A DNA stretch of 63,432 bases, the filler included, from Reticulomyxa filosa (Eukaryota; Protista; Foraminifera), in the NCBI GenBank assembly GCA_000512085.1. It is 24 parts of 24 records of this genome, joined end to end, with 100 filler letters (N's around TTAATTAATTAA, not from the genome) between each part and the next. Parts side by side here need not be neighbours in the genome. Positions count along the whole stretch, not along the records: positions 45,042 to 48,255 come from ASPP01015508.1; 23 more parts are not named here. One strand, given 5' to 3'. Below the pieces are notes generated by a model. That model saw only the letters and a program-made list of their open reading frames with translations, was not told the DNA's origin and ran no database searches. Shown in pieces: positions 1,299-57,311 of the stretch. The position numbers were made by a program, and so were the translations under genes. Every line of letters starts with the position of its first letter. Position 1 is the first letter of the stretch.

Positions 1299-3301
1299 CT
1301 AAAGCATGGATTTTTTTTTTGCTGCTTTTTCCAGCAAGTCAACATATCTATGAGGTACATGAGGTGATCTTCCCAAATTAGATAAGTCGGTTTCTGTGTT
1401 TCCCTCATTGTCAAAGAATATGACAATTACAGTCACTATAACATGCACACATAAAACCTCATCCGAAAAGAATATTGAAGGATATGTTTTGGAGTGACAA
1501 ACTACATACCATCATCGTGAACCCTTCTTTTGCTTTCTATCGGAAGATTCATGATTGCAGACAATCGTTTCTCTTCGGGCACTAGTGACGATAATGGCAT
1601 AGCTTGTTCACATGCCGCCAATAATGCATGTTTGATTAAATGTGTGGATGGGTTTGCTATCCATTGAGTATCCAAACAAGCGAACAGAGCCGTTTTTATG
1701 TTGATTTTTTTTTTTTTAAGTTGCAATCGCAGAATATATTGTGAGTGAAAAAACTTAGTGGCTGAGTGTCTAAAAGTTGGCCGACAATCTCAACGACATC
1801 AACATTATTCAAATCCTGGAAAAGTCCGTCCGTGGCGATGATCATGAACTTGTCCTCATCTTGGATTTGATAGTAAGAAATATCTGGCTCTTTATTTATG
1901 TATTGCCACGAAACAAAAAAAAAGCAAGACTGGTCCCGAGAAAGTGTCACACCAAATAAAAAAAGTTCAACTTGCGGTTACGTAAGGTGGTGTCCACACG
2001 TTGTAGTATTTGGACCCCGACCACCGTTTGAAATATTCAGTGTCTTTGTAGTGTGCGTCTCCAAAGACTCGAGTCGGTTGTAATCTGCCTTTGACCCGAT
2101 CTTTATTCAACACAAAGCATAGCAAATTTTTATTTTTTTATTTTTATTTTTAAAAAAAGTGTATTATTTGAATGAAGAAATGGAGAATTAATTTAAAACG
2201 AAACTACGCCGTATGACGTCGTCTTCTCCAGGATGTTCTCCAAGTAGTCGATTTTTTTCTTTTTCATTGATGTCAATCTATGAACATATAAAAAGGGGGA
2301 GGGGGGGGATTATCAAAATTTTGTCCCTTGGAGAAGAGAGACGAGAGGAGGGGGGGGGGGGGGAGGGACAAGGAAGGGAAAAAAACAAAAAAAAAACAAG
2401 ACACAAATATAGTAAGAAAAATAACTTGATGGTCATTTGTCAAAGGTACACATTCCCATCTGTGACTCGGCACTCCATCCAATCCGTACTGCGGGACCTT
2501 CCTCCCCACGACGGCACGACAGTCGCCCACCCAGGCCGTGGTGACCAAGTCCTCCTTCACGTGACACACCACGGCACACGACCCGTTCAATGCGGGGTTG
2601 CCACTCTCCTCTTTCGAGTGTTGCGTTATCAAGTTGCTTTTCAGCCAAACTGCGTCGGCCAATTGAAAGGCTTCTGTGAAGGGGAAGATACTATATTTCA
2701 ATGTGTCACGCGGAAGGCTCAACAGTGTTTGCTCGGTGCGTGCCGTGATAAATGTAAACTCTTCTTTTTTGTCGTTGAATGGGTCAAATCTATTCAGCAA
2801 ATCTTCTTTTGTGGCTACGTACTCGATGAAGTCAAACTGTCATTTGTTTTGTCACTTTGCCACTTTTTTTTTTTACGGCAATACGCAAAAAAAAAAAAAA
2901 AAAAAAACCTGTGCTTATAAAAATAAATAAATAAATAAACGTGCAAATTAACACAAAACTAATTCGTTTTTGCAAAATTCTGATGTAAATTTTCCACTGT
3001 GCCCGTCAAATATTCCAAATAACATGCCTTTCAATGGGTGCGTGTGCAGTATTGGACGGACTGCATGTGTGTCTTCGATTGGATTATTTGCTTGGTACCA
3101 ATTGAGTGTGTAACCCGCCACTCGACCTCTGTTGATAATGTGTCGTTGTGCGCTCTTTGACAAATTCTCCCACAACAAATTTGGTCCTTTATGTTTTGTC
3201 AAATTTGGGATTTCATCGTTTGCTTTTACTCCCTTGTAGGAAAACACGTTGGTGGACACTGTGATTAACATTTGCAGGGAGTTCTGGCCTGGCTTGAACA
3301 T
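1299..3301 (-). CDS. PP2C/PPM phosphatase, pyruvate-dehydrogenase-phosphatase-like, multi-exon (start uncertain)
   Basis: Motifs ANNPIED, GMLFGIFDGHSG, GSCAVV..AWVGDCRAVVG, PLTNDH, RVKGRLQPTRVFGD, TPPYVTA, FMIIATDGL and HDD(V)TVIVI occur in the correct order across exons. Confidence 0.9.
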
Positions 3302-6965: not shown

Positions 6966-9900
6966 ACCACGACCACGACCACGGCCACCTCGACCTCGAC
7001 CTTCACCTCGGCGGCCAATGTCTGAACCAGAAGTGGAGCTTCTCTTCTGCTGCTTTAGTTTGCGTTTGGTGTGTGGAGTCATGAGTTGCTCCTTGTGTGA
7101 CAGCACTCGTTCCCAGCAGTGATCCCAATCTGCAAATCTCTTTTTCTGATTGAGCAATTTCATCAATTCGATCATGTTGTTGATTATGGCATTTGTGACG
7201 GGGATACGCGATAAATGCTCGGCAAAATTGTCTGTAACGTCACTTTCAATCTTTCCAATGGATAGCATCTGCAATGCTAGCTTCGACATTTCCGCCAAAA
7301 TGTCTTCCCACGACATGGCTGATGTTGGCTCTTCTTCATTGTCGTATTTATCAATCAACTCCTCGTTCACTTTCGACACTGTCTCAAATACGTACTGGAA
7401 CAACGCAGCCGATTGCTTTTCCAACTCTTTCAATGCTTCGGTATTCGCGGCGATAATTACGTCCGAAGAAGACGATGCCGAGGATTGAACAAGTCTCTTT
7501 CTTCTCTCTTCCAATAGTCGCAGCGCTTGTATGGACAAACGAGACCATGATTGGCGAATGGAATCGTCCTCGTAGATATTTTCAATGTTGAACAGATTGG
7601 GAGTCAATTCCGTCACGATTTTGCTAATCAAGGCAGGACTACACTCCACGACGGGTAAAATCGAAGCAACGCGCTCCAACAGCTGGAGGTCTTTGGATGC
7701 AAACACGCTTTCCAAGGCGTTACGTCCACTTCGCGCTTCATTCAAAATGCGGTGCATTTCAACGGCGTGGGCATGTGTAATATGATCAAATATGACTTGA
7801 CCACATTTTGTATCTTGCAAAGTGGCAATGGTCACTGCTGTTGATTCTGACTCGCTGGCATTTGCAGGGATTGCATATACACTTACTAATTTCATCCATT
7901 GTTTGACACATTGCTTGACCTGCCAAACTTGGTTGGGTTCTGGAATCGTCATTTTTTTGAATCCACGCAACACTCGTTCCGATTTCTTCTGCCATACAAT
8001 TTCTTTGATTCTTTGTTCCTTTTCTTCCAGTGTTTTGTGTTTGTGTTTGTGGGGTGCTTCTTGATCCCCACTACTTGTTTCAGATTGTTGCTGTTGCTGT
8101 TTGGCCATCTCTTCAATCTCTTTTTTCCTGTTTTCTTCCATTTTCAAGGAATGCTCTTGCGCCTTTTCGGTAATCTGTTGGACGTGTTCTTTGATGAGTT
8201 GGAACATTTGATTGTATTCGTCAAAGGCGTCATCCCAGCCTTGATGTGAGTATGTGCACAAATGTTGTTGCCACTGTTCATACGCGAATGCGATCAGCTC
8301 TTCCGTCGCAACCAAGTCTTCTTCCAACACTTTTCGATCGATTTGAGACAGTTTTTCAAACTCTTTGACATTGGCTCTTTCTGTAATGCATTTGGTTCGG
8401 AACCGACATAACTGTTTTAGCATATCTCCATAAATTTCGCTCACTTCTTGATGCCACGTTTCCAAGGCCTCTCCTTCAATCTTTTGGCTTGTGTTGTCTT
8501 GTTCTCCTTTCGTTTTTTTCCATAGCAACTTTTGCGGCAATGAGAAAAAGTATTTCAATATTTCCAATCCTTTGGACGTGGGAATGATGGTGTTGTCGTC
8601 AATTTTTCGACCATAGATAACTTTCATTGTAAAGCGTGACAATGCCACCGCCAATGTTCCTCTGCCAATTCCACTGACTTGGAATTTCAATAATTTCAAG
8701 GCTTCGACAATGCGAGTGGTCGTGTTGCCCTCAAGCAATTGGATGCTTTCGAAATACTCGTCTAATGTCTTTTTAACCAATGCAAAGCCATTTTCGGTTT
8801 CCAATTTGTCCAAATCCGTGTTATTTTCCAATACTCGTCGAACGAGTGAATGCCAAAAATAAAACCACTGTTGTTCCAGAATTGCATATAAATTCTTTTT
8901 CAAACTCGTTGTGGCCCAATTTCTTTGGTACATTTCGTTTGAGATGGTCAAAAGCAAAGCTCAGCAATCCCTGCGAAGACAGATCGTCACATTTCTTCAA
9001 TACCCTTGTGGAGAGCAAATGAGTCCATCGTTCCAAGTTGATATGACTGTTTAGTTCATATCTCATCAATGCCTCAACTTTAACACGGAGATCGCGTAAT
9101 TCATGAAGCAATGGGAATGTATGTAGCCATTTTTCTTCTTTTTCCGATTTTTTCTTTTCTTCTTCTTCTTCTTCTTCTTCGTTTTTATTCTTGTCCTCTT
9201 TTTCTTTTTTCTTTAATGTTTCCACCAAGTTTGCAAAGGCCGTTTCAAACTCTTTCCATTTCGTGGTCGCCTTTTCGACATACAATCCGTCTTTGCACAG
9301 TTGGGGCAACTTGTGCGAGTCTGGCACTGATTTTCCTGAAAATCCCAACAGATTTTCGATTCTCACTGAGGATATGAGCGACACCAAATCTTCTGTGTCT
9401 GATGACGAAGATGTAGTGGAAAGATTTTCTTCGTTTTCTTTTTTCTTTTCTTCCTCTTCATCATCTTCATCGGCTTCATCTTCATTCTTTTTGGGCTTCT
9501 CCTCCTCCTCCTCTTCCTTCTCCTTCTTTTTCTTGGCAGGCTTTGCTTCCTTTTCCACCTTTTTGCTGCTCTTGCTCTTCAGCTTGGAGGCCAATGCTGC
9601 GCTCATGGCCTCGATCGGGTCGGTCCATGTCAAGTCTTCATTGGTAATGGTCCACAGTATTTGACTAATCACTTCTTCTTCGTTTGTTGCCACGTCGTTG
9701 ATGTGTTCTTTTTGGTATTTGACCCATTCTTCTTCCGCCTTCACCAGTCGACTGAACAGTTCGTTGATTTTCTCCAGTCGTTGTTTGTGTGCGCTTTGCC
9801 ATGTTATGTGATGGCAGCTCTCGAGCAGTTTCAAAAACGAAGACAAGCAAAGCTTCAGCAAGTCGGCGTGGGGTCCGACAATGTCATTGGACTTGCGCTT

Positions 9901-12724
9901 TTCTCCAACAAAGTGTGATCTTCGATATTTTTTCACTTGGGAATTGGCATAGTAAAGCCATCGATGAACAAAGAAGTCCAACATCTACATTAAATAAATA
10001 TAGTTGTGACATATAATACACTTCAAATAAAAAGACCAATAGAAAAAAAAAAAATAAAAAAATAAAATGCTTCATACCAGCGTCCATTCAATTCTGCGAC
10101 AGAAGCTTTGGAAAGTATCGCCCGATGGCTTGACACTTTCGAACCATTGGATGACTTTGTCAACAAGTTGAGTCACTTCTTTGATATTTAGAAACGCCGT
10201 CACAAACTGTGGTTTCGCGATTTCCAACACAAATTGAAAAGTGACACCACGTTGGGAAAAAGTTCTCCAAAATTGATTGACATTGAGATAGCGGTGCGAA
10301 CGATCCAAGGCGCCGCCACGTTCGTTTCAGGGCTCGTCCCCACCATATCGTTCTCCTCTGTCACCTCGATCACCCCAACTACCTCGACTACCTCGACCAC
10401 CACCTCGACCACCACGACTACCTCGACCACCACGACACCTCCTCGACCACCTCCTCGAGCACCTCCTCGAGCACCTCCTCGACCACCTCCTCGACCACCT
10501 CCTCGACCACCTCCTCGACCACCACGAGCACCACCACTTTCAACAGCTGTCCGTGGTTTCGCTGCTTTTGCTTGTTGGACACCACCTCTTGAAGCGCGGA
10601 AGACGGGTTGTGAGTATTCCCCCAACTGGGCATTGGGATTGAGTGCGCACGAGTCCCATGGTTGATGAGGGAGTCAATGTTATAGTAACGAGACGCAAAG
10701 TAGGTCGAAAACTGAATAAAGTCTGAGTTGACAAGGAACTTGACGGGGTATTGGTTCATATTTTCCGGGAACACAATGTCCTGTTTGGACAAAGAGAACA
10801 TGATATCGACCATATCTAAAAAGGACTTTTTCATCAAAGGTTGTGAATTCTTGGTCACAGACAATTGTTTCTGCAACACGTCGCTGTCATTGATTTTCCA
10901 CGTCAGTAGTCCATAGCGATTAAAGTTGAGCGCAGCACTGACAAGTTTGAACATCAATTCGGGATGTCTGTTCCAAAACAAGTTTTGCGAGTCCCAAATG
11001 AGCCGAGGAATGGACAGGAAATAGCCAGGTTTGAGGACGTCACGTGAGCCTTTGGCGTCGCGAAATTTCCTGGCCATCGAATGTGATGATTCGTACCATG
11101 ATCGTTCGCTGGCAATGGGTTCCGAGTGTTCCGTGGTAATGGTTGGATATTCGATAATCAGCTCCAGCAATCTCTGCGTTATTTCACTTGGATGCTGTAA
11201 CAGTTCAATCCACCCCGACTTGCCAAGGCGTTCGTGGCGGGTTACCTTACCATTCTTATGTGTGCTTATCACTGGGGTGCGTCGATCACGGCTTTGCTCG
11301 CTCAAAAAATGATAGCTTGCCCAATTCGTCGTGTTGTCATACTCGGTAAATTCCTGATGCAATTTCTCGTCCAGCAGACGCAGTATCAAATGCGGTTGAA
11401 ACTTGCACATTCGACGCCAGTCCACCAATTTCGATTTCAGCACTTGTTCGTTTTGTATCGTCGCTGTTTCAACTTTGCCGCGACTGCACACATACACGCA
11501 CACAAAAAAAAAAAAAAAAAACCAATCATTTTTAAATTATCGCGATAAAACAAACAAAAGTTGGAACTTCACTTTTCCTCTCCAACCCCCTTTTTTTTTA
11601 AAAAAAAAAAAGTAAAAAAAGACGAATGACACATCATCAAAGCACACACACACACGTAGAAAATACCTGCAAGCATGAAGAAAGGAGGCAACCAAATCCG
11701 GTCCAAATTTTTTCAAACAAGGGTCAACCAATGCGTCCAACTCTTGGACACGACGGGTGGCCATTAAGCATTTGATTGTTGTTTTTTGAATAAAAGGCAC
11801 CGATTTGGTCACCAAATCGACTAATTTCTCCGTACTTTATTTATGTATACATATACATACATATTTTATGTGTATATACATACACATGACACCAAAATGT
11901 AAAACACAGCAAACAACAATGTTTGGGATTATTATATGTGTTATTGCTATGTAAAACAATTACAAAGCGTAAATGTATCCGTGTTAACTCTTGCTGTCGC
12001 TTGACATAATTGATAACAATAAACTGCTTCATAAAAGTCGACGACGATCTCATCTCTTTGAATAAAATGTCTTGGCAACAATCGCTAACGACGGCCGCCA
12101 AAATGGCTACTTGGTAAATGTGATAGTGCTTCGAGACATTGCTTGTCGAGGCTGGCAACACTTGGACCAATATATCTCCTTTTGCAGAACTTGTTTCTTG
12201 CTCCATCTCTTTGTCCAAATCCATCGCTTCTTCGCTCACGTGCGCAAAACTTTCACTGTCTTCTCTGTCAACACGTTTCTACCGCCCTCAATTTGCTCGA
12301 AACTCAGCGACATGCTTTCCTCTTTTTCTGCTATTTGCTCCACTTCCTTTGTCTTTTTTTCTTCCGTTGCTTTCTTGTCGCCTTCTTGTGATATCGTTGT
12401 CATCGCTTGGGCCACTTGAGTTCCTTCAAACTTTTTTGTATTTTTTATCCACATTTCCTTTTTTTAAAGGGAGGGTTAGGCAAAAAGAGGGGGGGAGGAC
12501 ATTTTGTCCCGTCCGAAAGAACGCATGTTTTCGACACATTAAAAAAAATAATACAGAAAAACATTCGAAACTTTGGTCAAGTCTTTCACCAACTGATTAA
12601 ATTTGTCCGGCGTTTTTCTTCCTACTGTTCCGAGAGCAATTGCATATTTCTTTCTATCGTAGTACTTTGGTGACTGCGACACTTTTTCTCTCACTTCTTC
12701 CGCTGTCGGGAGTTGAGAGAGCAT
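6966..12724 (-). CDS. Large (>1500 aa) helical protein of unknown function with two RGG boxes and acidic tracts; 3' truncated; several frameshifts
   Basis: Consecutive long minus-strand ORFs (12724-12539, 12454-11841, 11815-11537, 11503-10072, 9984-6966) join via GT-AG introns and single-base shifts at ~12275, ~10640, ~10435 and ~8897. RGG repeats at 10380-10535 and 6966-7015. Confidence 0.7.
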
Positions 12725-16143: not shown

Positions 16144-17268
16144 AGAAGAAGAGGAAAAGGAAGAAGAAGAAGAAACAGAAAGAGTACATGCAAAAGCAGT
16201 GCCAACATTGTCATTATGCAATTCAAAGACAACACCAAACTATAAAAAAGTGCTATACATTCACGACAACGACGACGAGAAGCCGTCGTGTTCGTCATCG
16301 AGAAGCAACTACATAAAGACGAGTGAAGCGATAATAAAATCGATAAGCAGCGGATCGAACTGTCGAATAATCCAATGCAAAGTGAGCGAAGTGGAAAAGA
16401 GCAAAGGACGAGTGTTTAAAAACTACCATGTGGTGATCATCATGTTGCGATCGAGTTACGCCAGCGCAGTGCTGAAGCAAGTGGCGCGGTACTGCGAGCG
16501 GCAATGTCTAATCATCGTCATCCACGGAGGTGCCACGCACGGGAGCAAGCATCGAAACAACTTTATCCGCTTGGGCGCCAATGTGGTTACCAACGACGAG
16601 CAAGCACTTGTTAAGATCCTGCAGGCTGTGTCTAGTCAAGGACAGAGTTTTGTGGATAGTCAAAAGGTGGATCATGACAATGTCAATGTCAATACAAATG
16701 TTAATGTCAATGCCAATACCAATACCAATACCAATACCAATACAAATGTTAATGTCAATACCAATACTAATGTCAATGTCAATGTCAATGTCAATGTCAA
16801 TGTCAAAGGCAATGGACCAGTAGTGTCCGCAGCAGCTGCTGTGAATGCAACCAAGTATTATACGTGTGAATACTGCGGGATGGAACACTTGAGCGACAAA
16901 GAACTGTTTGTACACTTGCCATTGTACCACAGCAACCAAGGACACATTTCCAATGGCGACAATTGCAACAGTGCGGAGTCGTTTCCTCTTCACTCTCATC
17001 TTCCTCGTTCCAATGACAATACAATAGCAATAGCAATGGCAATGGTGGTAATCGATCCACCAAGTCACGCTCTTCTGCTAATGCACACAGTCGTGGCATT
17101 CGAGCACATCGCTGTCCAATGTGTCAAGGCGAGTTCATTAGCAAAAAGAAATTGTTCTGGCATATGAGGTATCAATATATGCTATATATAATACATATAT
17201 CATATATTATATATATATATATATACATACATATATGTATATGTGCATATACATAGGATATATTTTTT

Positions 17269-29373: not shown

Positions 29374-30599
29374 TTCTTTGATTGCTTTGAGAGTCCAGTC
29401 GTACTGGCCATCATCAACAAATTGTTGTTTCTGAAATAGTTTGCGAAACAGGTTACGTAAGTAGTGATAATCGGGCTTTTCATCAAATTCCAACTTTCTG
29501 CAGTACGACAAGTACTGAGCAAATTCTTGTGGTAAGCCTTCACACAACACCTCAATCGACGTCTTTTGCTTTACTGAAGCAATGCGAGAATATTTTGCTT
29601 GCTTCGTTTTCGCCTGTTATTGTCATTATCATTCATCATTAATTATAAACTGAGAGAATACGTAGTGTGTATAGTACTTAAAGTTTTTTTTTTTAAAAAA
29701 TTACATGTTAGATAAAGAAATACTTTTTTTTGTGTGGAGGTTTGGTTGATATACGTAGTGTACGTACTTTTAAACCTTGCCATGGCAATTTCCCTTGTTT
29801 GATGAAGTACAACAAGACATAGCCCAACGTCTCCAAATCGTCTCTTCGTGATTGTTCATAGCCCAAATGGGTGTTCGCACTAGCATACCGTGCTGTTCCA
29901 GTTAGCGACTTTCCTCGGACAAAAGGAATGTGCTCTTGCGTTTCGGGAACAATGTAATGTTTTGCCAAACCAAAGTCAATCACATGAACCTTTTTTTTTT
30001 TTTTTTTGTTATTGCAGAGAGGGAAAAAAAAAGGTATGTCAACAATTATCTTTTATAGACAATTAACAATGTTGAAGCTTTCGTTTAGCCCAATTAAAAA
30101 ATTGTCGGGTTTGATGTCTCGATGGATGTAATTGTGTGAATGCACTTTTTCAATTCGGTCTAACTATTATCATTATTATTTTTAATCTTTAAAAGTTCGA
30201 TTTTTTTTTTTTTTTTTTGTAAAAATTATACATCGATGAATGTTGTGTACGTACCATTTGCTCCGCTAAAAGACACACAGTCTTCAATGAAAATTGTCTT
30301 CCACAATAGTTAAACAGCTCTTCCAGACTCGGTCCTAACATTTGCATTACCAAAATATTGAACTCTTCTTCTGTTCCGAACCATTTCACAAGTGGTACCC
30401 CTACAGTTCCTTTCATATTTTTGTAGATTTTATATTCGTAGTGTAGCTGCGGACACTGCGTTTTTGTATTTTCCAATTTCACTGCGACAACTTCTCCTGT
30501 CAACGCGTGCTTGGCTTCATAAATCACCCCAAAACTTCCACTTCCTACTTTTCTACCCAGCAAGTATTGGTTGCGTGCAACTCGAATTTCAAAATCCAT
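29374..30599 (-). CDS. CK1: Casein kinase 1, four exons visible, 3' truncated
   Basis: [81 protein letters not shown]. Exons 30599-30255, 30163-30068, 29989-29768, 29613-29374. Confidence 0.97.
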
Positions 30600-31032: not shown

Positions 31033-33221
31033 TTTTTCTCTGTTGAAATTTTTACTAAAAAATAACCTAACTCAAACCCGACGACATAAATGCAATGCCT
31101 GTTTGGGAATCTGTAGCTGCTTCGTGGTGGTGATAGTAGCAGCACTATCGTACACATTAATCGACAGTGCACCGGCGGTATTTCTGAAGCGAGCAGAAGA
31201 CCAATATGGGCAGTACGACTGTATGGGAACGCCAGAGGTATCCTCGATGTTGAACTACACATTGATAAGGGAGTTATTGGCAATTGAAGGGAATAGCGAA
31301 TATGCATACCACAGTCCGCGGATACTGTTTAACGACACGTACACATACATTTATTCGAGCGATTGTTACAACCTGCTTCAGAGCACATTACAGTGCAAAA
31401 CGCCATACAATACATTTGACAACTGCACGTTGCTGTCCGATTTCGTGACATCCCCATACTACACAACCGTTAAGGGTGCTAACGACAGTAAGCAATGTCA
31501 GCAAAACTTTAAAGAGCACGCCCAGATATGGCTCATCGATTTCAACAAAGAATCTAACATGGATTTTGGTCGATCATTTGATTCAAAGGCTGTGCCAGGT
31601 CAACATTTTGTTCTTTACAATACTTACATATATATATACATGTATACATATATATATATGTATATGTATATGCGTATGTTATATATCCTTGTTCAAACCT
31701 TCCTTTTTTTAAGGATTCATAAGTCTTATGGTTGTACCAGTCACATGTCTCTCCTTTTTTTTTTTTTATTAATAAAAAAAAAAAAAAAAGGTGTTGGTGA
31801 AGCAATCTTGTCCTCTGCGACAGTGGAAGACATGGACATGCCCGTGAACGTCGGTGACATATTGTTGATCGAAGTGCCTTTGAATCTGCTCAGCTTCTCA
31901 CTGTTGCAAAACATGGTAGTGGACATGGAACTCTCTGCCAAGTATGGTAGCGGCAACTATGACAAATTCCAGACCTATGACAAGACGAGCAGCGACTATG
32001 TCTACGACAACGCCACGCTGTCCTTTATCGATTTGATCGGCTTCAGCTGCTCTCAGATCATCATCCCTGTCAAGATCAAGAGTATTCAAAACAAGCAATT
32101 GGGTGGCAAAGTTCATTTTTTTTTTTTTAATAAAAAAAGGGGGGGAGGGTCCCTTTTTTTTTTTAATTCACATTTAAATTTATTTGGTGTACCACTCTTT
32201 TTTTTTTTTTTTTTTGTTTATCACATCATTATCATCATCATTAAGTTCCCGCAATCGTCGCAAGACTATGATATCATTTTGTCATTACCAGACTTTGTGC
32301 AATCGTTTGTATCTTGTCTACCACCAAAGGTATTGGAGCGCATGGACGAGTTAAATGTCCTCAGTGTGCCAGCAAGTGACATTGCGTATCCAATGTCATG
32401 GGATACTTACTCCTATCAGTCTTCTATGTACAGTTCTGTTTTTTGCAAACATCTTTTTTTTTATTATTATTAAAAAAAAAAAAAAAAAAATGGACCTCAT
32501 CAAATGTGCAATAAGAATCAACCACAAATAAAATAAAATAGACTCAATGTGGACGTATTGGTCCACAAGAGTATATGATTACGTGAATTATGTATATTTT
32601 AACGTGGGGACGACGCGCAAGCGATTGGAGACATATTTGAATACCGACTATCAAACCATTCAAAAAGCGCTGGTCGAATACAGCTCCACGTTGCTCTATC
32701 GCATTGGCTTTACTGAGAGTATTTTTTTTGTTACAATTGAAAGATAGGAAGGGAGGAGGGGGGGGGGGGAAAAAAAAAAATTATCATTAAAAAAAAAAAA
32801 AAAATAGTGCATCTATCGATGGACGTATTGTCGGAATTAGAAACATCACAAAACACAATGCTGTCGCTGGGTATTGTGCTGGACATAATATTGTTTGTGC
32901 TGATGATATTGTCCGTGATGCTGTTGCACGCACTGCTGGTGATATCGGTGGACACGAGAACATTCGAATTGGGTGTATATCGCATGATCGGCATGTCTCG
33001 TCGCAATCTGGTACAACTGTTAGTGTCACAAGCACTGAGCTACTCCATCCCCGCCTACGTCGTGGGTCTCATCGTCGCTCAAATCGGGGCCATCTTCGCT
33101 TTGCAGTGGATGGGGTCCAGTGGCAATTACAACTTGGATAAAAAGCTCACTGTTTATGCCATTGCCATGGCCACTGTCGTTGGCATTGGTTGTTCATTGC
33201 TCGCTGCAATTCTACCTATCT

Positions 33222-43700: not shown

Positions 43701-45094
43701 ANNNNNNNNNNNNNNNNNNNNNNNNNNNNNNNNNNNNNNNNNNNNTTAATTAATTAANNNNNNNNNNNNNNNNNNNNNNNNNNNNNNNNNNNNNNNNNNN
43801 NGTGAAGATCCCAGTGCATTTGAATTACACACACAATCGACTTCGCTACTGTGCTTGTATTGCCGATTGGATCAATATCTCTATCTTACGCTGGAGTCAC
43901 GGAAAAATAATAGCGATGTCATTTATCACGGTGTGTACGATGCGGAATAGTAGAACAAGCCACTTTCTTGACAGAACGCTATACACAGTAGGGTAAACCC
44001 TTTCAGGGTTGGAGCGATGCTAGAAAATTGATCATTGTTGAGGCAATACCTTCAAAAGTATTGGTGAGTGAACTGAACCTTGCATTTGGAGATCCTAAAT
44101 TTCATAAATATTTTAAAAAAAAAAAGTGACGAAAAAAATATGTACAACCCATGCCACCACAAACATCTGAGCTACAACTACAAAAATAATGTCGATAACT
44201 TTAAATCTTCTAATGTTTTTCTTTCATTGCTTTATTAACCTTTTCAACTGTCATTGCTGCAATGTAAGCTCTTTTCTTTTTCTTTCTCGTAATTGTCTTT
44301 ATCATCTCCATTTTATTCATATTTTTCTTTTCATCTACATCTACATGACGGCAAGAAGATACTACTCCAAATCTTTTTTTGCCAACAATGACAAGAATCA
44401 ATTCCCATTTCACACAATCTAACGCGCTTTCTTTCAGATTTAAAATATTAAAGTTTAGAAAATTTTTTACGATGAGTATGATTTGATTGTAAAGAAGTCA
44501 AGTGAGCTGGAGGTGAGACATTGCAATTATAATTAAAAAAAAGTACAAAAAAGATAAATTTTTCAACCAAAAAATGTGAGGCAAGCGTTAAATACTTGCA
44601 ATCAAAATTTGGCATTGTTTGTACTTCGCTTCACACAGCAACCACAACAGCTACTTTTCAAGTTCTTGATGTTGCACGTTTACTTTCATGTATGCAGCCA
44701 TCAATATTGGTGTGGTTACTGTTACAATTGCCATCATTGCCGGGAACTCGCTGCAGCACAATGACAATATAAACAGCAAAAACGCGTCCATCCGCATTCC
44801 AAAACTTCGTTAATACACCTTGGAATATCTGTTAAAATATTTTAAGCAACACATTTCATACATAAAATAAATAACCAACACCACGTATAAATATGTAGTG
44901 TTGTTATTAGTTATTGAATATGTACATATATTAAAAAAAAANNNNNNNNNNNNNNNNNNNNNNNNNNNNNNNNNNNNNNNNNNNNTTAATTAATTAANNN
45001 NNNNNNNNNNNNNNNNNNNNNNNNNNNNNNNNNNNNNNNNNAAAAAAAAAAAAACAAAAAAAAAAAAAAAAAAAAAAAAAAGAGTTTGAATAAG

Positions 45095-46796
45095 TAAGAC
45101 AAGTGAGAAAGGAGGGATGATGGAAAAGCAAACTACATAATGTCAATAGTGTTTCTGGGAGCACAACATTTCGGGTCGCGTTGGCATGTCCAGAAACACA
45201 AGACAACAACGAAACAGTTTGGACATCGAAAGGTAAATTGTATGCATATCATACAATACATATGTATAATATTATATATATACATGTACACATATATACG
45301 TATACATACATATATAATATATTTATATTTTTTTTGTATATACGTATTAAAAAAAAAATGATAAATTGATAACTTATTTCAATAAAAATGGCAAACGAAT
45401 AACAGAGCAGAAATACCAAGAAGTGTTGGACGAAAAGTTGAAGAGTCAGTATGGTCCGGAGATGCGAGCAAAGCTGATTCAGAGTTTGTCAAACATCGTT
45501 GGGTGTAGTGTCCAACCTCAGAAAGGATGAAAGAAGGGCGACCAACCTAACAACCATGTCCTCAATGGTGTGGGGGGGGGTTTAAAAAAAAAAAAAAAAA
45601 AAGGGTCCACCGTGTTCATATCGCGTGACAAAAAGCAACAGCGGTAATTACACATTGGAAATCGGACAAACAATCGAAGACATAAGTGTCACTTTAGCTA
45701 AAATTGAATTGTTCAAAAACAAACAAAAAGGAAAAAGTTTGGATTATCTCTTTCAGAAATTGAGCGACACAATTCGCTTTCGCAAAGTTTTTCTTTGTTT
45801 ATTTGTTGGATTGGACGAAAGGGGGGGGGGGGACTATCTTTTTTTTTTTTTGATAGACATTACATAATCCCCCCTTGGCAAAAAAAAAACATAGGAAGAA
45901 AATGAAATGCTGAATACAGAAAAAAAAATGTGTATTAACACAAAGAGATGAAGCTTTGCAACAAATTGACGCCACCACGGCGTTGAAAACTAATGCCGAA
46001 CAGGCTTTGTTAGAAAAAGTTTTGATTTTTTTTTTTTTAACAAAAAATTTTGCTGGCTCAGCAAAATCGTCATTTGTTTTTTTTTTTTTTTGCTGTTGTT
46101 ATTAAAATTATGTCCAATCATATAGTTTGTACTCATTTTAAATGCCAAAAAAGCCAAAATTCGCGAATTAACAGAACAAGGTTTTTTTTTTTGTTTTTGT
46201 TTTGTTTTAAAAGTGAAATGAAGAGATAGTGACATTTGTTTTAAAAAAATGTATGAAAACGTGTGTTAGTGCGTGCATTGGAGACACAATTGAGTGCAAA
46301 GGTTGCGTTCGACTTGGACGAAATGGAACGCAAAGGTATGGCAGTGGATGGCCACGGAAACAAGGAAAACAACAACACATTGTCACTTGGCACAGTGATG
46401 GACAGCGTGGATGCATATAACAATTGCGACACGCATGCACCAATGAAGATCAGTGCGGTTCCAAAAGATAGCAGCAGCAACTCGCAGCTGCGTCGCAATG
46501 ACGTTGCTCAAGACAAAACAGTCAACCGAAAAGACAAAGACCTTGGGGGAAAACAGACCCCAATACCTTCTTCGCCGTCCTCTTCACTTGCCAAATTGAA
46601 CATTTCTGCAAAGAAACGGTTCGCACACATTTTGTCTACAAACAAACACATTCTCATCAATACTGCTCTTGCCATGCCATATCATGATATTTCATGCTCT
46701 TTTTTTTTCTTTTTTTTTTAAAAAAGGAGTCGAAGGGAAACACTGGAAGACGGACGAAGTCAAGTGACACTCGGTGGCAACAACCGAAATTTGCAG
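45095..46796 (+). CDS. XRCC4: XRCC4 (NHEJ ligase IV partner), multi-exon; 5' and 3' ends uncertain
   Basis: Exon 46126-46180 reads FVLILNAKKAKIRELTEQ (XRCC4 F.LVLNEKK.KIR.L motif). It is preceded by the head-domain end LEIGQTIEDISVTLAKIEL..LDYLFQKLSDTI and the coiled coil EENEML..RDEALQQIDATTALKTNAEQALLEK, and followed by a disordered tail. One shift in the A9 run at ~45925. Confidence 0.8.
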
Positions 46797-48121
46797 GTGA
46801 ATAAACATGAAAACAACTTTGGTGAACATTCTTCTCCTGACTATAAAAAACGTAAAAAAATTAGTTTGTCCAAAAAAGAGCTTTGTCATATACTAAGCGA
46901 TGACGATGATATTTGCACATTCAACACAGACATGTTATTGTAGTTTCTTTTACGTTTTCCTCACGTTTTTTTTCTATTTAATTCTTTCTTTTTCTTTCGG
47001 GCTTATTCACATGTGTCCGGCCAATGGTTGCTTTGAACAAAACAACGTTATCCAAACGGATCAATACAAAATATTAGCATTTTGAATGGGACAGGTCCTG
47101 TTTCAGATAATAACGATATAATGAAACTGATAATGTTAACAATCACGATGCTGTTAAGCTAGACTATGTATGTAAAAGACAAATCAAAGATAATATCATT
47201 GACAATGTGAAAGAAGAAAAACCATATCCATTGATTCCAACATGTACAGTTCAAGTGAATCTTGAAAATCCTTTTTTTAAAATTTCTTTAATCAATTTTC
47301 TTTTTTTAAAAAATCTAGAACAAAATCGATTCTACAAATGATGATAAAATTGAAATTCTTTTTAAGGAAAATCATTTTATAGATATACAACAGTTAAAAA
47401 AAGTTTTATGCCAAATCAGAGTTACTTTCAGTGATCTTATGATGTTTATAGAAGAAGACATTGGCCGTATTTATATAGCTGAAAACATTGACTGGAAGAT
47501 CAATCATGTAATAATTTTGACATTGATAAACATTCTGGGATCATATATTCATATCAAATTATTGCTTATGGTAAAGTTACGCTTTCATTTGAAAATGAAA
47601 AGCAATATCATTTAATTGAAGAAATAAAAGATATTACAAATATAATCTAAAAACTACGATCAAAAATTATTAATTTGGAAAGTAATTGTAATGATTTAAA
47701 GAAAAATTTATCAACAAGTATAGGTATTTTAATTAAAAAATTCAAGATTATTATAAGATATTATTAAATAAAATTGACGTATATATAGATAAAAAAAAAG
47801 AAACTAGTTAATTATTATAGCATATTAATCATATTGATGATGTATTAAAAAAAATAATATTATACAATTGATTAACGATAACAAAAAAACTCAAAGTGAA
47901 AAGGATAAAGTTATAGAAGTAGTAATAGAAAATGAATGCATTGATCTAGATTTTTTAAAATCAAATTTAATTAACTTAAATTTTAATAATTTCATTTATA
48001 TCCAATTTACAAGAGATGATACACAAATAAATAAATTAGTGAAACAAGTAGCTAATTTAGTTGATCGACATATTGTTATTATCGAACATGTGTCAATAAC
48101 TTTAACGATAAAAAAAAAGTA

Positions 48122-48186
48122 AGAATTGAACTAGCGACTGATGGTTAATGTTATTATTGTCAGCCATCGGTCGCTAGTTCAATTCT
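48122..48186. repeat. Near-perfect inverted repeat/hairpin (25-bp stem) with a third diverged arm copy at 48230-48255
   Basis: agaattgaactagcgactgatggtt pairs with agccatcggtcgctagttcaattct (2 G:T); the third copy is tagaactcgagaccgatagttggcaa. Confidence 0.9.
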
Positions 48187-48355
48187 CAAATTTGTATTTT
48201 TTTTTATATTAGATAAACTCACGTAAGACTAGAACTCGAGACCGATAGTTGGCAANNNNNNNNNNNNNNNNNNNNNNNNNNNNNNNNNNNNNNNNNNNNT
48301 TAATTAATTAANNNNNNNNNNNNNNNNNNNNNNNNNNNNNNNNNNNNNNNNNNNN

Positions 48356-49408: not shown

Positions 49409-50099
49409 NNNNNNNNNNNNNNNNNNNNNNNNNNNNNNNNNNNNNNNNNNNNTTAATTAATTAANNNNNNNNNNNNNNNNNNNNNNNNNNNNNNNNNNNN
49501 NNNNNNNNATCAAAAAAAAAGATTGGAAAGTTTTTATATTTTATATTTTTATATTTTTTATTTGTATTCGATATTAGAGGGATAGGGAAAATTTGTGGGA
49601 AAAAGAAATTAGAGGGGAAAAGATATTAAAAGGGAAAAGAAATTGAAGGGAAAAAATAAAGGGAAAAAATCTATTGAAAAAAGGTTGGGAAAAGAAAATG
49701 AATTAGAAAAGGGGGGAAATGAATGGGAAATGGGAAAATAGTTGGGGAAATTTTATTTAAGAATGGAAAAAAATAAAAAAATGAATGATTAGAAATAAAA
49801 AAGAAATGAAAAATAGTTGAAAAAAGAAAAAGAAAAAGAAAATAAAAAAAAGGATAGAATGTGAAAAAAATAAAAAAAAGATTGAAAAGATATAAAAAGA
49901 AAAAAGAAAAAAAGAAAAAAGATTAAAAAAAAAAAAACTGTGTCAATGGAGGAGCGGAGACTAGTCGCTCATACCGAATGGATTGTGTTTGTGCGCGTTT
50001 TCGCGCTTTTGATTTTATGTTGTGATGGTGCTGGTGGTAGTAAGATTTAGAAAGAGATTGTTGGATCAACGTAGGAGCACAAGTCTTTGCAGAACAACT

Positions 50100-56435: not shown

Positions 56436-57311
56436 CTATACATTCGGGTCAACATCCACTTTGCATATTCGAAACTATCTTGTGTGTACTTGGACGCCTT
56501 GGTGACAGTGAGACAGTACTGTGCCATCAAATCCCAATTGCCGAATAAATAATAAAAAGATATCAAATCGCACAACAAATCCAAGTCCGTCGGACACACT
56601 TCCAATGCCCGCTTGTAATACACCGCTGCGTTGCTGTATTGGTTTCCTAACGCACATACCAATGCACCTGCTCGTAATGCCTATCCACAAAAATAAATAC
56701 ACTAATATACATATATACATATATGCATATATATATACATATATACTTATATGTATATACCAAATATATTTTTTGTACACAATTTTTTTTTTTCATTAAA
56801 AAAAAAAATAATAATAATAATAAAATCACAACTCAACTGTCACGTTATATGCATTCAATTGTAACGCCTTTTGACAGATGTCTGCCATGGTTTGCCATTT
56901 GTCTTCTTTGGCATACGCAAGTGAGAGCTGTCCCATCAAATCCACCTTTTCGTTTTTCAATTCATCGTCCGACGGAATATGCTCCAATGCCAATTTCATG
57001 TGGTGGATCACTTCTTCCACTGCAAAGATTTTGTCTAAAATCATCGCCATCAAATAGTGGCACTTCCAATTGTTTGGATGCTTTTCCAAAATTTCTCGCA
57101 ATCGTTGCACCGATTTTGTATAATGACCTTGTCTTACATTCTCTTCAATTCCTGAGATTTCACTTGCTAAGTTTTCGTCGTTGCCACGACCGTTATTAAG
57201 CGAGGATGAACGCGACCCTCCAGCATCATTACTCACATGTGCATCGTCCGAACCTGCATCACGAACGTTGGCTCCAACCGGAGGCTTTTTAAATCGGCTG
57301 AAGAAGTTCAT
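56436..57311 (-). CDS. TPR-containing protein, partial, two exons
   Basis: Helical TPR-like units (LEKHPNNWKCHYLMA..MKLALEHIP; CQKALQLN; AAVYYKRALEVCPTD); intron ~56837-56681. Confidence 0.7.

Follow-up and report, generated by a model that had tools for sequence, protein, structure and literature searches.

A nested hairpin of homopolymer runs in a predicted intron of an XRCC4-like gene of Reticulomyxa filosa, probably a by-product of its run-rich sequence

In the foraminiferan Reticulomyxa filosa, an XRCC4-like gene has a predicted 108-nt intron that can be folded into a nested hairpin of complementary homopolymer runs. We read it as an ordinary spliceosomal GT-AG intron whose hairpin is a by-product and not a selected splicing device, with a probability of about 0.7. 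The hairpin is read as a by-product because it is no more stable than the same runs placed in another order. The features discussed below are collected in Table 1; the window denotes the whole stretch of DNA analysed (63,432 nt, filler included).

Table 1. Features of the XRCC4-like locus, in window coordinates
Feature	Position	Strand	Remark
Contig with XRCC4-like gene	45042..48255	.	one of 24 short contigs, N-spaced, making up the window
Exon 5' of intron	45604..45786	+	putative last part of XRCC4 head domain plus first part of stalk; RFI_19188 match and residue-numbering test
108-nt phase-0 GT-AG intron (predicted)	45787..45894	+	in-frame stop 45865-67; donor common to public model
Outer helix, 5' arm, U-rich, with donor GU	45787..45799	+	minimum-energy fold and sampling
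G12 run	45821..45832	+	pairs with C6 in standard model; two-tier quadruplex if allowed
Apex, 5-bp stem CTATC/GATAG around T13	45834..45856	+	minimum-energy fold
C6 run	45869..45874	+	the window's only + strand C run of at least 6
Outer helix, 3' arm, A-rich (A10 45880-89)	45877..45890	+	ends four bases before intron end
Disputed 25 nt	45895..45919	+	exon in 108-nt model, intron in public model; coding-like score
A9 run, frame change needed by 108-nt model	45920..45928	+	likely a homopolymer miscall
Exon matching human XRCC4 residues 180-195	46126..46179	+	PDB hits E 0.77-1.9; Pfam XRCC4_CC E 0.045, below cut-off

The identity of the host gene is supported by several weak lines from Pfam, PDB and ESM Atlas, each below its own bar but together consistent with the XRCC4 label given in the first-pass annotation. 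The public protein RFI_19188, a hypothetical protein of R. filosa, is 100% identical to the exon 5' of the intron over its residues 59-119. Against Pfam XRCC4_CC, this public model, whose introns are mis-called, scored 14.3 bits (E 0.045) and did not reach the curated cut-off of 27, and four single exons searched in the correct frame gave no Pfam match. With the exon at 46126 as the query, all five PDB hits listed were XRCC4 chains, matched at residues 180-195; two further exons and the whole protein gave no XRCC4 match in PDB. The best four rows listed by ESM Atlas were XRCC4 clusters both for feature hits (0.86-0.92) and for structure (TM 0.49-0.57, from a poor query model with a pTM of 0.17). 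Protein searches for orthologues returned only the gene's own protein (P0001) or nothing, and a search of representative sequences returned it plus one weak repetitive match (P0002) that was set aside. A metagenome locus (L001) was rejected as a spurious orthologue, as its contig has 59% GC and the match lies in a stop-broken frame. In a table of PMC13746701, the R. filosa genome is given 50,809 scaffolds, an N50 of 3609, a mean intron of 87 bp and 30.5% repeats.

The intron has its GT at 45787-88 and its AG at 45893-94. RFI_19188 uses the same donor but places the acceptor AG at 45918-19, resulting in an intron of 133 nt and an open frame. Acceptor 45919 is the only workable one if the assembly frame is left unchanged, whereas acceptor 45894 requires one A fewer in the A9 run to keep the frame. 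Removal of 108 nt eliminates the in-frame stop and would restore XRCC4 spacing, at the cost of this one base. We nevertheless favour the 108-nt intron because the disputed 25 nt are coding-like, because the 133-nt version has two late AGs, and because the XRCC4 residue numbering fits. The coding score of the disputed stretch was +6.0, a value reached by one of 32 intron ends in leave-one-out scoring and by none of the 32 in-sample. Two AGs fall within the last 27 nt of the 133-nt version, as against none of the 32 other introns (26 had no AG there and six had one). When residues were counted back ungapped from residue 180, which assumes no gaps across 70 residues, the 108-nt model placed Leu at 108 and Val at 106, and the 133-nt model placed Thr and Gly at these positions; in human XRCC4 they are occupied by Leu-108 and Phe-106, which lie on strand 7 (PMC3173232). 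A gene finder picked 45787-45894 as well, the flanking exons being partly in its training set. The 108-nt version probably beats the public one at the price of one miscalled A, and RFI_19188 is probably wrong at acceptor 45919; the boundaries proposed in the first-pass annotation are the likelier ones by coding score, AG count and XRCC4 spacing.

A second apparent one-base frame shift lies near the gene start, in the A4 at 45124-27. For the frame changes at A9 and A4, homopolymer miscalls are likely the simplest cause in an assembly that we take to have been made by pyrosequencing, and because such miscalls are likely, the run lengths within the intron are uncertain too. Another apparent single-base frame change, likely an assembly miscall too, was seen near window position 8896, in an otherwise intact gene. 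Elsewhere in RFI_19188 (45140-46269), donor 46076 appears mis-called, with T-runs read as protein and 46019 the likelier donor, and two upstream exons appear to be read in another frame. A check of the 108-nt intron for splicing signals found no pyrimidine tract, its place being taken by A10, and branch-like words that were only loose, at 45850 and 45854.

All sequence blocks described in the first-pass annotation are present at the coordinates it gave. The intron opens with GTTTTTCTTTG at 45787-97; AAA (45818-20) is followed by G12; CTATC (45834-38), T13 (45839-51) and GATAG (45852-56) form the apex; and C6 is followed by TT (45875-76) and by C-A10-C (45879-90). The minimum-energy fold of the isolated intron, at -25.7 kcal/mol, places the 5-bp apex and the G/C helix within an outer helix of 12 pairs (45787-99 with 45877-90), and adds a side hairpin (45802-07 with 45814-19) absent from that annotation. 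The middle layer, proposed as AAG12 paired with C6TT, held up in that a G/C helix is predicted; C6 offers partners for only six of the 12 G, however, and the AA-UU pairs are disfavoured, the folding model preferring G-U pairs and forming 0.78 of the two AA-UU pairs. All three helices occurred together in 90% of 2000 structures sampled for the isolated intron, the apex being counted on four of its five pairs since its window was one base off. Forbidding the outer helix or the apex cost about 4 kcal/mol each, and forbidding G12 cost 14.6 kcal/mol, which indicates that the stability of the fold is that of G/C pairing. The energy was unchanged with G9 and weakened to -22.7 with C5 and -19.9 kcal/mol with C4.

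The claim that the hairpin brings donor and acceptor together stands for the excised sequence only. As exon sequence was added on each side (0, 25, 50 and 100 nt), the outer helix was predicted in 94%, 61%, 43% and 13% of samples, respectively (1000 samples for each flanked length), and at 20 C with 50-nt flanks it retained 0.04 pairs. A contig-wide search of Rfam 15 gave 17 weak matches (E up to 5), none of which overlapped 45787-45894.

The fold does not exceed chance once dinucleotides or runs are preserved. Mononucleotide shuffles, which break the runs, were as stable in 34 of 1000 cases (z -1.9). With dinucleotide shuffles the count was 20 of 200 and z a non-significant -1.26. When the runs were kept and only their order was shuffled, 539 of 1000 sequences were as stable as the intron (z +0.08); reruns gave z values of +0.02 and +0.23, with 56% of 600 as stable. 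For scale, a hairpin at 48112-48202 of the same contig gave z -10.6. The earlier view that mirror-ordered blocks made chance less likely thus finds no backing in stability, which is at chance for dinucleotide and run-order shuffles alike. Stability beyond repeat-preserving shuffles, which characterizes the class of introns described by Lin et al. (2016), was not found for this intron. Homopolymer-rich genomes yield mirror-ordered complementary blocks by chance, and only a run-preserving null tests them.

The separate layers gave a similar picture. The G12:C6 helix was present in 99% of 600 run-order shuffles. End-to-end pairing of at least 12 pairs was seen in 6% of these shuffles and of at least eight pairs in 16%, so that the end pairing of the focal intron has a p of about 0.06 (one of 25 shuffles in another run), a level that about two of 33 introns are expected to reach by chance. 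At the apex, a 5-bp stem closing a run of at least 8 was found once among 162 such runs in the window, against 0.2 expected from swapped flanks (P about 0.18). The focal intron does have the lowest energy per base (-0.238) of the 28 introns folded.

We compared it with the other introns predicted in the window. Out of 43 anchor pairs, ten were dropped (four without a frame or candidate, six unclear), leaving 32 introns plus the focal one, all predicted; several of these hand-set introns were chosen by eye over the top score, and 12 were graded secure. A rule-picked set held 31 of 53 listed introns, those of 50-250 nt whose flanking exons both scored at least 5. The intron upstream in the same gene was set at 45498-45603, with no frameshift; an earlier 36-nt version (45568-45603) gave the same outcome for polarity, G/C runs and matched ends, and it was this version that stood in the intron set for the energy, shuffle and end-pairing comparisons (run-shuffle, antisense and intergenic).

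Runs of at least 5 G occurred in five of the 33 introns and runs of at least 5 C in five, and both in just one, the focal intron, for an expectation of 0.76 (Fisher p 0.59); the intron that precedes it in the gene carries G9 and no C run. Long T- and A-runs co-occurred in 10 introns against 9.76 expected at a length of at least 8, and in 20 against 18 at a length of at least 6 (p 0.078). In this small sample of 33 window introns, co-occurrence of complementary repeats beyond independence was not detected, and the G- and C-runs were distributed as independence predicts. The outcomes that the first-pass annotation had named as refuting its idea, a z-score near zero or G- and C-runs distributed independently, are largely what this small sample gave.

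Nor did intron ends appear matched to each other. Duplexes between an intron's own ends averaged -3.5 kcal/mol as against -3.7 for swapped ends (p 0.69), and the focal end duplex, at -6.6, ranked fourth of 33 and was equalled or beaten by 153 of 1056 swapped pairs. End pairing lay above the run-shuffle mean in 10 of 27 other introns (p 0.84; five of the 32 were left out by length); at least 7.5 end pairs were predicted in four of the 27, and 10.0 in the focal intron. The other introns folded somewhat more stably than their run shuffles (mean z -0.85, p 4e-4), with no difference between sense and antisense (p 0.64) and a non-significant one from 53 intergenic windows (p 0.09).

The outer helix of the focal intron is one instance of a T/A polarity found throughout the introns of the window. 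The share of T is 53% at intron positions +3 to +12, and in the ten bases that precede the AG the share of A is 52%; the A/T skew climbs along the intron from -0.41 to +0.09. Among the 32 hand-set introns, 24 had a stronger A-skew at the 3' end than at the 5' end (p 2e-4), and so did 10 of the 12 graded secure (p 0.016) and 22 of the 31 that were rule-picked (p 0.0015), as against 101 of 188 intergenic pseudo-introns (p 0.34), which came from 20 stretches chosen by eye. At least six A in the last ten bases were found in 17 of 32 introns versus 33 of 188 pseudo-introns (p 4e-5). A strong pyrimidine tract, taken as at least eight pyrimidines among the ten nucleotides preceding the acceptor, was seen in none of the 32 introns, an absence that by itself is non-significant against pseudo-introns (0 of 32 versus 16 of 188, p 0.14). 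Counted at gaps of up to 10 nt, a T-run preceded an A-run by 11 to 1 within introns and by 28 to 20 between genes (p 0.04); such short gaps were used because the count at a gap of 100 is biased, runs in a long chain having to alternate. Directly adjacent intergenic runs were T-then-A by 17 to 4, a bias at the DNA level. Since the T-then-A order is identical on both DNA strands, RNA pairing is not singled out as the cause of the polarity.

Other AT-rich protists also have A-rich acceptors that lack a tract, and the A-rich, tract-less 3' ends seen here raise the question of how 3' splice sites are recognized in R. filosa. The literature covered, which did not extend to the original genome description and its supplements, gave no account of intron structure or polarity in foraminifera. 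In the portions available, PMC13685798 and PMC3488318 hold nothing on A-rich acceptors, and PMC11347168 mentions R. filosa only for its 2.1% minor-like introns.

Other features of the window were recorded in passing. The hairpin at 48112-48202 is long and near-perfect and lies near the end of the XRCC4 contig, with z -10.6 on the + and -10.5 on the - strand and none of 200 shuffles as stable. Its arm mismatches are G-U pairs on the + strand, it is single-copy in the window, and its matches to microRNA precursors in Rfam are sub-threshold only; it may be a precursor of small RNA or what is left of a mobile element. Long TA/CA-rich self-complementary stretches lie in introns at 45239-45328, 11835-11988, 17170-17260, 31620-31690 and 56700-56770; among such introns, 11835-11988 (z -4.8) and 56681-56843 (z -2.4) exceeded run shuffles. 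An intron at 32116-32164 resembles the focal one on a smaller scale (z -1.7), with a T-run, A7, G7, GGG, CCC and a second T-run arranged in mirror order. About 400 bases at 49555-49940 form degenerate short repeats whose + strand is nearly all A and G. Multi-exon genes lie at 29374-30599 (-) and 1400-3300 (-), and their translations resemble casein kinase 1 and PP2C phosphatase.

Selection for a hairpin that bridges the intron by pairing donor with acceptor, on the pattern of the (AC)m-(GT)n introns of zebrafish or the GGG/CCC introns of human, has a precedent in PMC4691745 and fits the three nested helices of the isolated ensemble, the top stability per base among the 28 introns and the borderline end pairing. 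Its energy is at chance for its runs, however, with no co-occurrence of G and C and no advantage for matched ends, and the outer helix is lost once exon context is added; by burying the donor GU, that helix would also hinder U1 binding. The zebrafish example, moreover, reaches -99.7 kcal/mol over about 170 nt versus -25.7 over 108 nt (PMC4691745), and we consider a bridging function quite unlikely. A looser arrangement general to foraminifera, in which a 5' U-tract zipping with a 3' A-tract stands in for the pyrimidine tract and the focal intron is a clear case, would suit the tract-less, A-rich 3' ends of the 32 introns, the rising A/T skew and the order of T before A at short gaps. Duplexes of 5' with 3' ends are also the strongest on average (-3.7, versus -2.6 for 5' with 5' and -3.0 for 3' with 3'). 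These duplexes are weak all the same, and many introns have no predicted end pairs; end pairing is no better than in run-shuffled controls, the lack of a tract does not by itself separate introns from pseudo-introns, and the polarity is explained just as well by proteins that recognize the tracts or by a cause at the DNA level. Such a zipper is accordingly rated improbable, and we are just as doubtful of its boldest form, a lineage-wide U/A zipper of foraminiferan introns in which the XRCC4 intron with its G12/C6 clamp would be the clearest structure-guided splicing code in Rhizaria.

A different kind of objection is that the hairpin may not be tied to functional splice sites at all, either because the true acceptor is the AG at 45918-19 of RFI_19188 or because the gene is a decayed copy. 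Only acceptor 45919 keeps the frame open with the assembly as it is, the A4 near the gene start is a second apparent frame change, and in the 133-nt version the ends do not pair (0.6 pairs, z -0.78). This is unlikely in view of the coding-like 25 nt, of two late AGs unlike all 32 other introns, and of Thr and Gly where human XRCC4 has Leu-108 and Phe-106; the public model also reads the T-runs of the next intron as protein. Finally, G12 might fold into a two-tier G-quadruplex or bind a G-run protein, in which case the G/C layer would be absent. With quadruplexes allowed in ViennaRNA, G12 folds on itself and the energy reaches -31.0 instead of -25.7 kcal/mol, and four of the 33 introns have G-runs without a C partner. 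Energy estimates for two-tier quadruplexes are rough, though, and C-runs are as frequent as G-runs on the sense strand (5 versus 5), which gives no hint that G is selected for at the RNA level; we hold this alternative to be very improbable.

The reading of an ordinary intron with a by-product hairpin has some observations against it: the lowest energy per base, the 90% three-helix ensemble, the significance under mononucleotide shuffling, the borderline end pairing and the somewhat better folding of the other introns relative to their run shuffles. The comparison behind it is also a small one, with five G-run and five C-run introns, all predicted. Under this preferred reading, slippage, by which homopolymer runs grow, would produce the long intronic runs of this genome, and the T-then-A polarity of the introns would supply the weak outer helix. 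G- and C-runs, which occur one without the other in several neighbouring introns, would share the focal intron by chance, and the 5-bp apex would be a coincidence of flanks. The inner G/C helix may form, perhaps harmlessly, because any G12 and C6 within one short RNA would pair; nothing in the present results shows selection for it. In the full pre-mRNA, the outer helix is predicted to be mostly open, and the major spliceosome would use the GU, a branch A and the first AG past the A-tract.

Low-complexity, repeat-filled introns of Physarum resemble the present case in that noncoding homopolymer runs trouble assembly, and the part of PMC4758236 consulted gives no 5'-T/3'-A polarity for them. 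In Dictyostelium, T-tracts and A-tracts likewise keep a fixed order relative to gene landmarks; unlike the focal case, these poly-T and poly-A tracts delimit genes at their ends and nucleosomes at their borders, and the word intron is absent from PMC3371697. An intron-defining pairing of the two ends has also been proposed for the nonconventional introns of Euglena (PMC12501133). They lack GT-AG, however, and carry CDG/CHG motifs at a set spacing, whereas the focal intron is GT-AG and without the paired motif (PMC12501133). The closest likeness is to the repeat-bridged introns of Lin et al. (2016; PMC4691745), a class in which repeats co-occur more often than independence would give, the fold is more stable than in shuffles that preserve the repeats, and splicing does not depend on U2AF2. 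As in those introns, complementary simple repeats stand in mirror order within a GT-AG intron with no clear pyrimidine tract, and a hairpin joining the ends is predicted. In contrast to the fish introns, which are very stable and have experimental support, co-occurrence and stability are at chance in the focal intron; its G/C runs are internal, and the helix at its ends is a weak A-U helix that includes the donor (PMC4691745).
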